Shown here: one piece after another, positions 1 through 11,694 of the stretch
Numbering within the stretch: the stretch's first letter is position 1
Layout: each line of letters begins with the position of its first letter
Assembly: GCA_051882055.1 (NCBI GenBank)
Contig: JBJERB010000025.1
Span: 15,740 to 77,920, forward strand
DNA length: 62,181 nt
Reading direction: 5' to 3'
Source of the DNA: Oscillospiraceae bacterium
GTDB lineage: Bacteria; Bacillota; Clostridia; Oscillospirales; Ruminococcaceae
Notes under the pieces: model-generated
Seen by the model: only the letters and a program-made list of their open reading frames with translations
Told to the model about the DNA's origin: nothing
Database searches by the model: none
Program-made: the position numbers and the translations under genes

Positions 1-1253
1 TCCATAACATAAACTGTATCAAGAGTATAAGATTTTGCAGCTTGTATTACCCGTTCTCTTGAAACATTGTTTATTATTTCGTTAACTTCATCAGGTGAAT
101 ATTGAGTTCCTCTGACTCTTTGAGTAAAATACCATGAATTTAATGCAAGCACACTGTCATAATTAGATCTGAATCCATTATACAATGCTTTTTTAGTATT
201 TTCAAGCAATTCATCAGAGAAATCGCCGTCGGCAATTAATGAAAACTGGTGAAGTATTTCCGATTTAGCCTTTTCAACATTTTCTTTTTCTATACCGCTG
301 TTAATGATCATAGTTTTCTTACATTCCGCAATATGGGATGAACAATAATAGCAGAGCGATAGCTTTTCACGCACATTTGCAAAAAGATATGAAAACGAAG
401 TTCCGCCGAACATAGCACACATTAGCTTCTGAGCATAGAAATCCTCATTTTCTGTTTTAAAAGCCATTATCATTTTAGATTGATTAACTTCATATTGTTC
501 TTTGATTTCAACAGCTTCATGTTTTATAATTGAAGGACAGTTAAAATTTATCTCCGAATTATAATCTCTTTTTAAATTCGAAAAGCTGTCGATAATCAGC
601 TTCTCTGCTTTATCAGCTTTTCCCCCTCCGACAACAGAAATGTCAATATAACTGTTGCGGAGCAATACACAATAAGCATTATACAAATCACTTTGAGTGA
701 TTTTTTCCACCTGTTCTACAGTACCGTTTTCATAAATTGATGCCGGTTCGTTTTGATAAATAAATTCACTTGCACGAAGAGCAGCATATCCACGCCTGTC
801 ATTTATTTCACTCTTGATATCTTCTATAAGTTCCTTTTTCCTTAATTCAAAATATTTTTCAGGAAATCTATTATCATTGATATCAGGATTTAATATGCAA
901 TCAAGCAATATTTTTATAGCTTCCTCTGAAACCTTTTCATTATTCAAAGTATAATCGTCACCAATATACCGAATACTGATTCCTGTTATCTGATAATCTC
1001 CCATAGTATATGCAAATGATTTCAGTTGTGAATCATAAAGACCAATCAACTTTTCATTAAGCTTTGTCCTTGATTTCACATTACTGTTGGAAGTACCCAA
1101 CAAAGCAGACAGCAATGAATTTAGCGGAGCGGTATCTCTATTCAGCTTTGTAACAAAACGAACAGCCACTAAATTTGTTTTAAATTTATTGTCATAAACA
1201 CCGGAAAGAGAAATACCCTTTCCGATTTTTCTTTGAAAATATGAAACAGACAT
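1..1253 (-). CDS. M16 family peptidase-like protein (YmfF-like), runs off the left window edge
   Basis: Not in the ORF track. Manual minus-strand reading from ATG at 1253 gives MSVSYFQRKIGKGISLSGVYDNKFKTNLVAVRF; a later segment reads GGTSFSYLFANVREKLSLCYYCSS. Both motifs are typical of YmfF/M16 insulinase-fold proteins. Confidence 0.8.
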   Translation of the reverse strand, partial: MSVSYFQRKIGKGISLSGVYDNKFKTNLVAVRFVTKLNRDTAPLNSLLSALLGTSNSNVKSRTKLNEKLIGLYDSQLKSFAYTMGDYQITGISIRYIGDDYTLNNEKVSEEAIKILLDCILNPDINDNRFPEKYFELRKKELIEDIKSEINDRRGYAALRASEFIYQNEPASIYENGTVEQVEKITQSDLYNAYCVLLRNSYIDISVVGGGKADKAEKLIIDSFSNLKRDYNSEINFNCPSIIKHEAVEIKEQYEVNQSKMIMAFKTENEDFYAQKLMCAMFGGTSFSYLFANVREKLSLCYYCSSHIAECKKTMIINSGIEKENVEKAKSEILHQFSLIADGDFSDELLENTKKALYNGFRSNYDSVLALNSWYFTQRVRGTQYSPDEVNEIINNVSRERVIQAAKSYTLDTVYVM

Positions 1254-1380: not shown

Positions 1381-1418
1381 TAAAAACAAAAGTGAGCAGA
1401 CTTTTTTGATCTGCTCAC
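1381..1418 (-). terminator. Intrinsic terminator closing the upstream non-coding/micro-ORF transcript
   Basis: Minus strand: GTGAGCAGA-tcaaaaaag-TCTGCTCAC stem followed by TTTTGTTTTTA. Confidence 0.85.
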
Positions 1419-2313
1419 CTTATCGTTATATTTTATTAACTAAATTTTTATGCACTTAAACGTACATTGGAATTCACTCCAATAAAAAATCTTAATTCGC
1501 TCCGAATTCCTCGGGTCAAACTAAATATTTAGGTGGACTCACTCCTTAATGTCAGATGTTTATCAACTTTGTGAATACATTATACATATGCATCACTCCA
1601 CATCATTTAGAATTTAACCTTCTAAACAAATATTATATTCAAGCCATCGGACTTAGTCCTTTCAAAATATTTTTAACCAAATTCAAACTAAAGATTCTGG
1701 CGGTCTCACTCCCTACTATTAAATAATAAGTCTCGAAATGCAATACATATTAATCATATTACATCACTCCACAGAATATTTTCTATTGAATTGGTGATGA
1801 TTTTTACATTGGAATCACTCTTTCAAATTATTTTAAAATCACCTTAAAAAAACTTGAAATGTGCATTGGATTCACTCCCTGCTGTTATTTATTCAGACGC
1901 CTAATAAAGTAAATCATATAAAACCCTTCTTTATTATTTCTGAACTATTAAATTGTAACATGTTTTGAATATCCAGTTTGTAAAAACCTATTATTAAAAT
2001 CGTCCTATGAGACTCTTGATTATTGTCTTAAATAACTGTCCGTTAAAGTATATCACCCTGTTGTCTGAGTTTTACTTAATTAAAATCACAATCTTTCGAG
2101 TCTCAGGATATTCTGCTGACTCTCTGTTGTTTCCATCGGACTCGCTCCCTTTCCAATTAATATTAGGATTAATATTGATATTATAAGACTTTGTCACATC
2201 CGATTGTAATATATAGTCTTAAAATATTACTTCAACATTTCCTTAATTTAGTACTTCGGAATTTAATGATTTAATAAAGCTATTGTTTTATTGAATCCCT
2301 TATTCCTTTTCCT
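1385..2313 (-). ncRNA. Candidate ~930-nt transcript carrying an array of SD-ATG/micro-ORF units (unknown family)
   Basis: Bounded by its own promoter and terminator; no entry in the ORF track; about 10 SD-like cores, all on the same strand. Confidence 0.55.
1456..1931 (-). repeat. Degenerate tandem array of nine ~57-nt units, each with a ~15-nt core GGAGTGA(A/G)TCC(A/G)ATG and a variable AT-rich spacer
   Basis: Core first-base anchors at 1878, 1821, 1770, 1712, 1659, 1599, 1545, 1480 (spacings 57, 51, 58, 53, 60, 54, 65), plus a divergent unit at ~1931 and an isolated copy at 2148. Confidence 0.85.
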
Positions 2314-2319
2314 TGATTA

Positions 2320-2348
2320 TAATATATCACATCTTTTGTCACTTGTCA
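2320..2348 (-). promoter_or_regulatory. Sigma-A type promoter pointing into the array
   Basis: Minus strand TTGACA-17 nt-TATATT with an extended TG (tgaTATATT) and an overlapping TATAAT. Confidence 0.75.
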
Positions 2349-2407
2349 ATAGTTTTTTTCAAAAAAATCATAACTTTTTTATTTAATATTACTTTTACAA
2401 AATATGC

Positions 2408-2517: not shown

Positions 2518-2847
2518 ATGAACGAAGAATATACTCCTGATTTATACACCCTTGAAGATGAAGAAGGAAATGAGCAGACTTTTGAAATGCTGGACGCTAT
2601 GGAATATGAAGGGGAAAAATATTTTGCCCTGACTCCATATTTTGATGAACCTGAAGATATGATTGAAGATTCCGGAGAAGTTGTAATTCTGAAATCCGAA
2701 TTTGACGGCGACGAAGAAATTATGGTTTCCATAGACAACGACGAGGAATATGAAAAAATCGGCGGCATTTTTATGAAAAGAATTGAAGAAATGTTTGCTT
2801 TTGATGATGATGAAGACGAATGTGACTGCTGTGGACATGAGCAGTAA
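2518..2847 (+). CDS. DUF1292 domain protein (acidic)
   Basis: YTLEDEEGNEQTFEMLDAMEYEGEKYFAL pattern; RBS GAAAGGA at ~2500 favours a start at 2512 or 2518. Confidence 0.8.
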   Translation: MNEEYTPDLYTLEDEEGNEQTFEMLDAMEYEGEKYFALTPYFDEPEDMIEDSGEVVILKSEFDGDEEIMVSIDNDEEYEKIGGIFMKRIEEMFAFDDDEDECDCCGHEQ

Positions 2848-5267: not shown

Positions 5268-5297
5268 TTTAACATAATATTGAACGGAGGCGGGATT

Positions 5298-6128
5298 TTG
5301 AAAATATATCTTGACGTTCTTATAATAACCAATTCGATTATCACTTTAATATACATTCAATGTATTTGTAAAATCACTCATATCAAAATCAGTAGAATAA
5401 GGCTTCTTTTAAGCAGTGCATTTGGTGGTATAGCCTCTCTTATAGTCATATTAAACAATGAAGGATTTATAAAATCCGCATTAATAACCACGCTAAAGCT
5501 ATTAATTGCAGGCATTATTATTTTAATCGCATTTAACATCAAATCATTTAAATTATCTCTGAAATACATATTCTTATATTTCCTGATGGACATTGTTTTT
5601 TCAGGAATATGCCTGATTATATGGCAAACCACAAAAAGCAAAATAATTTATGTAAAAAACTACACTGTCTATTTCAGCATTTCACTACTACACATGACAG
5701 TTGCGGCTATTCTGATTTATGGCATCATTTCAGTTTACGAATGGATATTAAGGCGAAAATTCAACAAAGCAGAAAAATACAAAGCAATATACTCCATAGG
5801 GGATTATGAAATTGAACTGAAAGCTATTGCCGACAGCGGAAACAAATTATGTGATCCGTTCACAGGTATTCCGGTGGTTATTTTTTGCTGTAACGAGCTT
5901 TTTGAGCATTTCAACCTTGACAATGAAAAACTGTTCCTGCAAAGCGGATTCAGGCTTACACCCTACTCCACTGTTTCAGGAAAAAGCGTTATACCGATAA
6001 CTTCAAAAGGAACTGTAAAAATCCTTGACGGTAATAACAATGTAAAAAATATAAGATGCTGCGTAGGTATTACAAGAAATAATAATCAACAAGCCCGGGC
6101 TATTTTTAATCCGTGCCTGATCACATAA
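5298..6128 (+). CDS. spoIIGA: Sigma-E processing peptidase SpoIIGA
   Basis: IYLDV N-terminus, multiple TM segments, DSGNKLCDP aspartic motif; directly upstream of sigE. Confidence 0.9.
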
Positions 6129-6151
6129 CAAACAGAAAGGATTTGATATAC

Positions 6152-6871
6152 ATGCGGTTAATTCACCAATTTAAAGAAAAAATCAATATTATCTTATTAA
6201 AATGCACAAATGCAGAAACAGATACTGTTGATTATATAAACGGTTCAGATTCTCTGCCTCCTCCCCTATCAAAAGAAGACGAGCTAAAAGCCTTTGACCT
6301 GATTAAAACAGACGAAAAAAAGGCACGTGAACTTCTGATAGTTCATAATCTTCGCCTTGTTGTTTATATTGCAAAGAAATTTGAATCAACCGGTGTGGGA
6401 CTTGAAGACCTTATTTCCATAGGTACAATAGGACTTATTAAAGCAGTGAAAACTTTTTGCCCCGACAAAAATATAAAGCTTGCTACATACGCTTCACGAT
6501 GTATTGAAAACGAGATACTCATGTTTTTAAGAAAAGCGTCACAATACCGCAATGAGATTTCCATTGACGAGCCTTTAAATATTGATTGGGACGGAAATGA
6601 ATTACTGCTTTCTGATATACTGGGTACCGACGATGATACGGTAAACAGAGGCATAGAAAGCGAAGTTGAAAAAGATTTGCTGAGAAAAGAAATCAACAAG
6701 CTCTCACCCCGTGAAAAGCAGATAATGGAGATGCGATTCGGGCTTCAGAACGGAAAGGAAATGACGCAAAAACAGGTTGCGGACATTGTAGGCATATCAC
6801 AGTCGTACATATCAAGATTAGAAAAAAGAATAATAAAATCCATAAAAAACAATTTAGAAAAAATCTGCTGA
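6152..6871 (+). CDS. sigE: Sporulation sigma factor SigE
   Basis: [51 protein letters not shown]. Confidence 0.95.
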
Positions 6872-6906
6872 TTAACGTTATGTAAAAATTTACATTAACA
6901 TATACT

Positions 6907-6935
6907 GCATATTGAAATGCTCCGGAGGCAATAAT
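6907..6935 (+). promoter_or_regulatory. Putative SigF/SigG-type forespore promoter for sigG
   Basis: GCATA-15 nt-GGCAATAAT resembles the SigF consensus GYATA-N15-GGnnAnAnT. Confidence 0.55.
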
Positions 6936-6962
6936 CTTATTATCAAGATCTCAGGAGTAAAT

Positions 6963-7733
6963 ATGCAGTACAATAAAGTTGAAATAAGCGGTGTCAACAC
7001 CGATGAACTTACCGTTTTAAAAGAAGCTGAAAAAACCGAGCTGCTAAAGCGGGTAAAACAAGGAGATAAAAAGGCCCGAGAACAGCTTATTAAAGGAAAT
7101 CTGCGTTTGGTTTTAAGCGTACTTCAGCGTTTTGTCAGCCGAGGCGAGTCCGCCGACGATTTATTTCAAGTGGGCGTAGTCGGACTGATTAAAGCCATTG
7201 ATAATTTTGATATTAACCTTGACGTAAGATTCTCAACATATGCCGTACCGATGATTTTAGGTGAACTAAGGCGATATATGCGGGATTATCAGCCCATGCG
7301 GGTAAGCCGTTCTCTCAGGGACATGGCATATAAAGCAATGCAGGCAAAAGAAAAACTTACAAACGAACATCAAAGGGAACCAACTGTTGATGAAATTGCC
7401 AAAGAAATAGGTGCAAAGCGAGGAGATGTAGTTACTGCTCTCGAATCTGTAAGTGATCCTATTTCCCTTTACGAACCTGTATATTCAGATGCCGGGGATA
7501 CTTTGTACGTTATGGATCAGGTAGGAGATAAAAACGATGCCTCTGATTGGCTTGAGGAGTTATCAATCAAGGAAGCCATAAATTCATTAATGCCAAGAGA
7601 AAAAAACATTCTGTATTTGAGATTCTTTCAGGGAAAGACTCAGGTGGAAGTGGCAAACAGCATAGGTATATCTCAAGCACAGGTATCAAGGCTGGAAAAA
7701 GGAGCTTTAAATAAAATTAAAAGTCAGATATAA
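6963..7733 (+). CDS. sigG: Sporulation sigma factor SigG
   Basis: NKVEISGVNT, DDLFQVG, FSTYAVPMI, GISQAQVSRLEK; follows sigE. Confidence 0.95.
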   Translation: MQYNKVEISGVNTDELTVLKEAEKTELLKRVKQGDKKAREQLIKGNLRLVLSVLQRFVSRGESADDLFQVGVVGLIKAIDNFDINLDVRFSTYAVPMILGELRRYMRDYQPMRVSRSLRDMAYKAMQAKEKLTNEHQREPTVDEIAKEIGAKRGDVVTALESVSDPISLYEPVYSDAGDTLYVMDQVGDKNDASDWLEELSIKEAINSLMPREKNILYLRFFQGKTQVEVANSIGISQAQVSRLEKGALNKIKSQI

Positions 7734-11245: not shown

Positions 11246-11413
11246 AGCTAAAAACTCCTTTTTCATTATGGCAAAGTTCACGAAAATACATTACAAAGAG
11301 ACGAGAAAATTGCACAAAACATAAAATTTAAACAAACAATAAAAAAACTGGTTGAAAACCAGTTCATCATACAATATAATAAGAATGTTGACACATTAAA
11401 AATGAAATATGTC

Positions 11414-11589
11414 GATAGCACTCCATCATAAGTTATGATGACAACTGGAGTTCTGTTAAAACTACAGTCAGCGTCAGGTTTCCCATGCCCAAGCTTCGGC
11501 AGTCGCACCTTTCACATTTACGAATAAGTCTTGGGAGACCCGGCTTGATTCGCCACGAAAATGCTACTGATTTTGACCGCACCTCTATC
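11414..11589 (-). promoter_or_regulatory. Lysine riboswitch (L-box)
   Basis: Minus strand ATAGAGGTGCG...AGTA...GAAAGG...GCCGAA...GGAGTGCTATC, upstream of asd-dapA-dapB. Confidence 0.9.
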
Positions 11590-11694
11590 TGTTCCTTTTT
11601 ATGATAACAAACAAGGAGGCATATGTCAAGAGGTATTACAAGGAAATTATTAATTTTTTGTAAAATAACACAATATATACACAGGAGATACAAT

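Follow-up and report, generated by a model that had tools for sequence, protein, structure and literature searches.

Stand-alone RNAs with repeated, GGA-containing motifs that resemble ribosome-binding sites (RBSs) are known from the CsrB, RsmY and RsmZ family, and Firmicutes carry a number of large, structured or modular RNAs such as OLE, ROOL, GOLLD, the raiA motif and the type III antitoxin arrays. Closer to the element reported here are the small genes rreB and rreR of Alphaproteobacteria. As far as their available description goes (PMC5711450), these genes stand alone with their own promoter and terminator, have a short ORF and GTG starts, and hold the RBS in a predicted stem. The 165-nt rreB RNA has one site of perfect, 16-17 nt complementarity to the 16S rRNA tail; the 17 nt take in the 7 nt between the Shine-Dalgarno sequence (SD) and the start, and the GTG's first base. 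It encodes a conserved peptide of 14-18 amino acids, sediments with the 30S subunit and binds it tightly, is weakly translated, and depends on its start codon for stability. A 20-fold overproduction has no effect on growth, and the function is given as unknown.

Pairing near the start codon and protection of the 16S 3′ end have also been described in other settings. In the accessible part of a study of the S. aureus 70S structure (PMC13009471), only two extra start-proximal SD pairs are seen; they form on ordinary mRNAs and aid start selection. RNase R begins at the 3′ end of 16S rRNA, an SD oligonucleotide protects the 30S subunit from it, and the protein HPF overlaps the RNase R site on the ribosome (PMC10901742, in the portion available); protection by HPF has been described in S. 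aureus (PMC8406268, likewise in part).

The element that we describe is a real, conserved and apparently undescribed class of RNA gene. Like rreB and rreR, it is a small gene with its own promoter and terminator, with short ORFs, GTG among its starts, RBSs in predicted stems, and 16S complementarity that extends, in the same register, as far as the start codon. Unlike rreB, it has up to 13 or more sites with interrupted complementarity, on an RNA as long as 1.9 kb; most of the sites end 0-2 codons past the start, a start codon is missing altogether from some, a large covarying domain occupies the 5′ part, and the hosts are Clostridia. The extra start-proximal pairs in S. aureus indicate that Firmicute ribosomes can form such pairs, whereas in the array the complement extends to position -1 and recurs along a non-coding-like RNA. 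With CsrB and RsmY the element shares the stand-alone RNA and the repeated GGA-containing motifs; it differs in the lack of an Rfam match, in the failure to find CsrA in three genomes of the genus, and in its selected start and stop codons. OLE, ROOL, GOLLD, raiA and the type III antitoxin arrays are alike in size, strong promoter, and covarying structure or tandem modules, but here there is no Rfam match, the modules are not near-identical, and no toxin gene is conserved next to them. Our literature search found no description of this RNA; an entry in the supplementary tables of a survey of noncoding RNAs or small proteins is still possible.

The unit in the source genome

The window, which is the whole stretch of 62,181 nucleotides that was analyzed, comes from an Oscillospiraceae bacterium. 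The element occupies a gap (1381-2349) between yfmF (3-1253, minus strand; NCBIfam NF047422, above cut-off) and a divergent DUF1292 gene (2518-2847, plus strand, with its promoter at 2408-2436). A preliminary description had proposed that this gap is a separate transcription unit built of translation-initiation modules, and the conservation of the unit in relatives supports this. Its promoter is of the sigma-70 type (TTGACA-17-TATATT with an extended -10, TG) and lies on the minus strand at 2321..2349, one base away from the position first given. The same promoter with its upstream A-rich tract is found in 79 of 81 homologous loci, and it is this conservation that counts, since the match is one of 15 promoter-like ones where shuffled sequences lead us to expect 11.4, and by itself says little. 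An AT-rich stretch between this promoter and that of DUF1292 (2350..2395) is conserved as well, possibly as an UP element or as the site of a shared regulator. The intrinsic terminator had been correctly recognized: with a 13-pair stem and a U tract (1381..1421, minus strand), it is the sole terminator-like site (1421-1389) within 1000-2800. The stand-alone transcript predicted from promoter and terminator would thus be about 930 nt long (1389..2315, minus strand).

The ten SD cores begin on the minus strand at 2148, 1931, 1878, 1821, 1770, 1712, 1659, 1599, 1545 and 1480, exactly where they had been placed. Their distances from 1878 to 1480 are 57, 51, 58, 53, 60, 54 and 65 nt, which agrees with the range of 51-65 nt reported earlier, as does the count of seven cores with an ATG 12-13 nt from the first base. 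What lies between the cores had been taken for variable, AT-rich spacers and turns out instead to be micro-ORFs and stems. Site 1 (2086..2148) combines an extended SD with a 16-codon ORF (METTESQQNILRLERL; ATG at 2136, GTG in some homologues); site 2 (1885..1931) has an ordinary SD and a basic ORF of 10 codons (MIYFIRRLNK; ATG at 1917); site 3 (1828..1878) has an extended SD and a 12-codon ORF (MHISSFFKVILK; ATG at 1866). At site 4 (1804..1821) an extended SD is followed by nothing more than the start-stop ATG-TAA. Sites 5 (1719..1770) and 8 (1552..1599), of the type that we call C, have an SD and ORFs of 12 (MINMYCISRLII) and 11 codons (MYNVFTKLINI), and 6 nt behind the stop of each comes an extended SD of type D, in which CCA (site 6, 1698..1712) or CCT (site 9, 1531..1545) replaces the start codon. 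The extended SDs of sites 7 (1639..1659) and 10 (1456..1480) lead into Met-Ala-stop and Met-Tyr-Val-stop. All of these are on the minus strand, as is a conserved A[AC]AAYTGAATA-type motif (1946..1956) present in most homologues looked at; it is kept even in the most distant homologues of the family and is sometimes relocated beside the terminator.

Sites of the form SD-(T/A)CC-V-(RTG or CC) occur seven times in the array, as against a mean of 0.13 and a maximum of 2 over 300 dinucleotide shuffles. A somewhat tighter pattern leaves six, and every other 900-nt window of the genome has at most three. The cores are about 74-79% alike, and TRF finds no tandem array in the element. We also considered, and dropped, an array of the type III toxin-antitoxin or CRISPR kind (there are no near-identical tandem repeats, and the downstream gene varies) and a leader-peptide attenuator (the downstream genes are often convergent or variable). 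At the gathering threshold, no Rfam 15 family (OLE, ROOL, GOLLD, raiA, 6S and others) matches over the element in the window, which fits the earlier remark that it was not recognized as a known family.

The DUF1292 gene is a conserved context, and a functional partnership with it is not shown: its protein has no relative in the PDB (best E 0.47), its matches in the Atlas are DUF1292 clusters only, and the literature search gave no functional lead. Among 20 homologous loci, the Rfam scan returned only 6S RNA, with eight matches, all on the far side of DUF1292 and directly downstream of it (L011:272-479, L035:2824-3030, L090:1923-2133, L094:1242-1428, L102:1837-2030, L103:1295-1485, L108:1280-1470 and L117:1172-1359), so the order of the locus is often element, DUF1292, 6S; the window itself gave no Rfam match to 6S RNA. 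No tRNA or tmRNA was found in the window either. Elsewhere in the window are a lysine riboswitch (Rfam RF00168, 94 bits; 11408-11595, minus strand) and a spoIIGA-sigE-sigG cluster (5280-7733, plus strand), which makes the host a likely spore former, and in a sporulating cell the storage of ribosomes would matter.

Distribution, expression and RNA structure

How widespread is the element? The search of related genomes by BLASTN that had been suggested as a check on conservation detects it in 14 genomes out of 26 others from the genus, and in none of 34 more distant ones; in all 15 genomes with a match it is divergent from DUF1292. A one-junction pattern is present in 15 of 401 family genomes from seven genera (0 for the reversed control) and, among the GTDB species representatives, in 42 stretches from Ruminococcus, Hominimerdicola, Oscillospiraceae and uncultured Clostridia/Clostridiales. 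Two 25-nt side matches (G004 and G013) lie inside a coding gene and were dropped. In a survey upstream of DUF1292, scored partly by eye and covering 29 genomes with a match, the promoter and at least one site are found in 9 of 9 genomes of the genus and in 13 of 20 from other genera. A further set has the element at the DUF1292 locus in 4 of 8 family genomes and in 0 of 22 from other families, three of the loci being incomplete. The same grammar of promoter, site and short ORF also appears away from DUF1292 (G063, G028 and G195), and in other families (G042, with seven sites in the unit, G043, G045, G060, G048 and G050). A pattern run across the class matched in 7 of 111 genomes, four of them with short frames, and two of these four with a clear promoter. 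Two scans of viral contigs gave 0 matches. By these searches, the unit is present in many genera of Ruminococcaceae, with a length of about 0.5-1.9 kb and mostly divergent from DUF1292, and smaller forms occur in other families.

Some forms are much reduced. Those with one or two sites come nearest to the layout of rreB; one-site forms with a promoter, an extended SD and an ORF of 3-21 amino acids are seen in L146 (G060:C14), L223 (G493), L228 (G514) and L151 (G028), one of them right after tuf. In L165:520-1950 (G195), a whole small element stands away from DUF1292 in two tandem copies with their own terminators.

Two RNA-library runs yield contigs of 151-212 nt, 98-100% alike, over 1913-2285 inside the element. 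These come from two studies of the same year and habitat, possibly from one campaign, and give neither strand nor level; with DNA carry-over also possible, we regard them as a weak hint of transcription. For the flanking genes and tuf-fus-rps, the longest contig from the same two libraries is 102 nt with five differences, and such contig gaps cannot rank genes. A third RNA library has short, partial pieces only.

The RNA is predicted to fold better than 20 of 20 shuffled sequences (z -4.83), and in the predicted single-strand fold, the SD and the CC of the sites are mostly paired within the RNA. A structured 5′ domain (1967..2113, minus strand) is closed by a long-range helix of 2113-2106 with 1974-1967 and contains inner stems. 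The long-range helix is 97.5% paired, with four of its eight pairs changed on both sides; the five named helices of the domain, compared in 15 homologues from the genus, are 93.6% paired with nine two-sided changes. None of 500 shuffles does as well, and slid controls reach 25-47%. This alignment-based comparison shows selection for a covarying RNA structure in the 5′ half. RNAalifold picked another partner for one strand of the domain, and the segment of ORF 1 can pair alternatively with the spacer of site 1 or with a downstream strand, an alternative that may act as a switch. A pseudoknot in the C-D domain was not supported (67.5% of cells paired, 56% in the crossing helix). Mimicry of a K-turn or box C-D, of the tRNA T-arm, or of the tRNA 3′ end, compared with consensus sequences, was dropped because RTG is mostly followed by G/T, the stems are no longer than 2-3 bp, and CCN is variable at its third base.

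Reading frames and predicted pairing with the 16S tail

For the anatomy of the sites we used the 81 homologous loci, 79 of which have the promoter and give 47 distinct elements of about 0.8-1.9 kb; seven element ends were set by a fallback rule, one is cut by the contig and a few overrun, and some counted sites may lie outside. Promoter, terminator and the order of site types are conserved across elements, and the first site of the RNA carries a frame of 10-23 codons. Sites of types A and B consist of an SD, (T/A)CC(A/G/C), and ATG or GTG (GTG in 9 of 246), mostly with a stop 0-2 codons further on. In C sites, an SD whose spacer lies in a hairpin stands ahead of a basic frame of 10-12 amino acids, mostly ending in xLNI. 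D sites have the almost invariant core GG(A/G)GTGAGTCCR, for which the array is the sole location in the source genome, 6-7 nt behind a C-type stop; CCN stands in place of the start codon in 73 of 110 and AAR in 34 of 110. The number of sites ranges from 1 to more than 13 and has changed by tandem duplication (G087, G118). In L167 (G118:C12:23500-26500, minus strand), at least three near-identical tandem copies of about 139 nt, each with a C-type ORF and a start-less site, are a recent expansion. In L166:970-1370 (G176, a genome with HPF), Met-Glu-stop and Met-Asp-stop sites alternate about 55 nt apart.

Are the reading frames themselves kept? At A/B sites, the first in-frame stop falls within two codons in 170 of 245, as compared with 51 of 242 and 33 of 244 for the other two frames. 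C-type frames behave in the opposite way: they are open for 7-12 codons past the ATG in 83 of 83, while a stop closes the other frames in 36 of 83 and 24 of 81 cases within two codons. In 236 distinct contexts, the codon after M-X is TAA 36 times, TAG 30 times, TGA 25 times and TGG never, where a purely structural U-R-R constraint would lead us to expect about 21 TGG. When D sites are read as GTG-started MSPP frames, TGG appears four times at the putative stop. The sites counted belong to related sequences and cannot be taken as independent of one another; the effect is nevertheless large. As judged by these codon counts, it is shown that the frames are under selection at the level of translation and that both start and stop codons are selected. 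Since minimal frames have no useful product, what is kept would be the ribosome event itself.

The 16S tail used for duplex prediction was taken from G013. Its complement ends in TCCA before such a start, which is the motif of the array, with G at -1 as a wobble; TCC(A/G) is fixed at -4..-1 of the sites. The preliminary description had recognized neither this extension of the pairing nor the selected stops nor the covarying 5′ domain. The tail's GGAUC contributes its GG (G1529/G1530 by E. coli numbering) as the partner of the CC at -3/-2 in the best duplex of 203 among 207 sites with a start and 95 among 97 without one; for ordinary gene starts this is so in 31 of 744. The site counts are partly circular, as the sites had been picked for CC. 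The median predicted ΔG is -13.6 kcal/mol for A/B, -15.7 for D and -12.7 for C sites, and -10.7 for gene starts; D sites go down to -19.2 kcal/mol once the helix-45 strand is offered, and a change of CC to AA is predicted to lose about 4 kcal/mol. The base at -1 is A or G in 183 of 207 start-bearing sites, as pairing with U predicts, and T in 4 of 290 sites in a looser scan.

The perfect complement TGATCC before the start is almost absent (2 of 207 start-bearing and 0 of 97 start-less sites), and at many short-ORF sites the proximal helix has only 3-4 bp and lies past an internal loop. This near-absence suggests that the sites are interrupted, tuned-down versions of the rreB type, not members of the rre genes. 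Perfect 16S complementarity of at least 16 nt, by which rre genes are recognized, is replaced here by interrupted duplexes; the complementarity does reach the start codon (203 of 207 best duplexes, again partly circular); and where an rre gene has a single conserved sORF of 14-18 codons and a small RNA, there are ten sites here, of which only site 1 has such an ORF. By these features, the array appears to work as a multiplied rreB but fails membership among the rre genes. Nor does TCC(A/G) imitate a class of genes: at SD-led gene starts, CC occupies -3/-2 in 10 of 744 as compared with 8.3 expected, so the genome-wide search for the motif at gene starts, proposed as a way to candidate targets, gave no enrichment. 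The starts of tuf (G000:C49) and rpoB (G000:C80) are among those ten, with T at -1, a base rarely used in the array.

A possible ribosome shield, its rivals, and HPF

Of the three functions first offered for the array, a ribosome sink is the best reading. In the form that we propose, the RNA is a multivalent clamp for 30S subunits that protects the 16S 3′ end from RNase R, to which we give an even chance. The RNA would be abundant, and each site would receive a 30S subunit by way of an interrupted duplex, at most about 13 bp long, that makes initiation slow, as with rreB. Once the proximal pairs melt, initiation would follow, and the frame would end after 0-2 (or 10-16) codons; normal termination would free the ribosome at little cost, and it could dock again about 55 nt away. 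The D sites, which have no start codon and follow a C-type stop at 6-7 nt, would catch and park subunits that have just terminated, and throughout, the covered 16S tail would deny RNase R its single-stranded entry. The likeness to HPF would lie in the proposed job only, i.e., keeping RNase R off the 16S 3′ end at the 30S platform (PMC10901742 and PMC8406268, each as far as available). HPF is a protein that binds the 70S ribosome and forms 100S dimers, while the array is an RNA whose job we infer. In the literature searched, we found no natural RNA with such a shielding job.

Several points count against the clamp: pairing at -4..-1 should exclude the AUG from the P site, and the S. aureus structure has just two extra pairs; with only about ten sites per RNA, the RNA must be very abundant to matter, and overproduced rreB left growth unchanged; the predicted fold mostly occupies SD and CC within the RNA; and the perfect complement is hardly ever used. 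A translation-coupled switch or sensor, in which ribosomes on the micro-ORFs refold the RNA and so set its decay or release a partner, would make ribosome binding the input instead of the purpose. Start sites and ORF codons do lie inside stems, the ORF 1 segment has two alternative partners in the 5′ domain, and the stability of rreB depends on its start codon according to the available part of its description (PMC5711450); but the transcript has no regulated gene, the downstream neighbor varies (yfmF in 8 of the 15 genomes with the element, convergent genes elsewhere), and a copy number from one to more than 13 by tandem duplication fits dose better, which leaves the switch unlikely, if worth keeping in mind. 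Somewhat less probable still is a polycistronic message for micro-peptides, the basic xLNI peptides of 10-12 amino acids and the first peptide of 16-23 amino acids serving as signals or as ligands of the ribosome tunnel and the minimal frames being relics or couplers. This reading, also offered at the outset, keeps one point in that the 10-12 amino acid frames may give functional peptides: C-type frames preserve both frame and length, and toward their end the variation is mainly at third codon positions. It is at odds with the start-bearing CC sites, most of which are M-stop or M-X-stop, with the start-less D sites, with an ORF 1 shifted by compensatory deletion in G006 and G023, and with the xLNI codons, which also form a stem (82.5% paired).

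Two further readings invoke a ligand other than the 16S tail, and we hold both to be improbable. A sponge for some protein or sRNA with a set of target mRNAs marked by SD-UCCR-AUG, in its narrow form like CsrB, accords with repeated GGA-containing cores on a stand-alone RNA, and was the first of the early proposals. It would have no need for selected stop codons, however, and against it also stand the lack of enrichment at gene starts (10 of 744) and a D core confined to the array; CsrA itself (PF02599) was not found in G000 (80% complete), G013 (99%), G020 (100%) or G206, and is present in G114. We give the least credence to a decoy that traps or reports EF-P (or tRNA-Pro), with CCN in the E site and the D sites offering Pro-Pro codons. 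The initiator tRNA shares the D-loop read by EF-P, and efp is found in 5 of 5 genomes searched. The position of CC is fixed relative to the start codon though the SD distance varies, and D sites mostly have CCN at the start position (the 73 of 110 above). EF-P contacts the first two E-site bases, but the first base favored is G, not C (bioRxiv 2024.04.15.589488, as far as available). A decoy leaves the T at -4 and the A/G bias at -1 unexplained, where 16S pairing explains both; AAR takes the place of CCN in 34 of 110 D-like sites, and the yfmF neighbor is clade-limited.

For the clamp, the distribution of HPF is of particular interest. RNase R is found in 5 of 5 genomes searched. Searches for HPF (PF02482) came up empty in G000, G013 and G020, as in every searched genome of the source genus, and detected it in G114 and G206. 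A profile search of 68 further genomes detects it in 34; it was not found in the first-listed 25 element-bearing genomes of that search, which represent 12 genera. Nor was it detected in G063, G195 and 7 of 22 genomes of other families, and a search for its C-terminal domain likewise gave nothing in 4 of 4 element-bearing genomes without HPF; nearly all bacterial control genomes have a detectable HPF. In an RpoB tree built for 30 selected genomes of the family, those without HPF fall into about five groups and have 2-13 sites (median 7), those with HPF 0-8 (median 2.5), and contrasts between sisters are mixed: G176, with HPF, has eight sites, and G029, without it, has four where its HPF-bearing sister G136 has five. 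Among five genomes of other families without HPF, G048 and G050 have small forms, G052 has one site, and no element was found in G039 or G049.

We then fixed a prediction beforehand and examined 70 genomes from new genera, in 18 of which HPF was not found, using the DUF1292 loci of all 18 and of 42 of the 52 others; two had no DUF1292 match, and four loci with less than 1 kb upstream were left out. Sites were counted within 1.5 kb upstream of DUF1292, a range that misses elements elsewhere, and the genera are not independent. The median is four sites in genomes without HPF (n = 15) and one in those with it (n = 39; one-sided Mann-Whitney, p 0.010). At least four sites occur in 8 of 15 as against 6 of 39, and start-less sites in 9 of 15 as against 6 of 39. 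The mere presence of at least one site does not differ in this way (11 of 15 and 20 of 39, p 0.22); four of the 15 have none, and the 20 HPF-bearing genomes with sites count against an exclusive link of the clamp to HPF loss. A looser pattern that allows out-of-frame stops, by which the counts do not separate the two groups, served only to choose 20 stretches for reading. These counts point to an RNA that is older than the losses of HPF, coexists with HPF, and is larger and richer in start-less sites without it. If the RNA shields idle ribosomes, it would do so most of all in lineages without HPF.

If the clamp is right, this would be the first natural RNA that serves as a ribosome shield. A still broader reading, which we find tempting but rather doubtful, is RNA-based ribosome hibernation, in which a modular RNA parks and protects many subunits via the entire 16S tail; if true, it would exist in a small form across Oscillospirales and would have been expanded with start-less parking sites where HPF was lost. 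Even if the shield function is wrong, this is still a widespread, apparently undescribed gene class of selected start-stop and start-less ribosome sites, and the array opens a route to the purpose of extended SD genes of the rreB type. The Ruminococcaceae include main fiber degraders of rumen and gut, and the carriers of the element are Ruminococcus-like bacteria of these two habitats. For such cells, where they have no HPF, the RNA offers a testable answer to the question of how ribosomes may be kept up through starvation.
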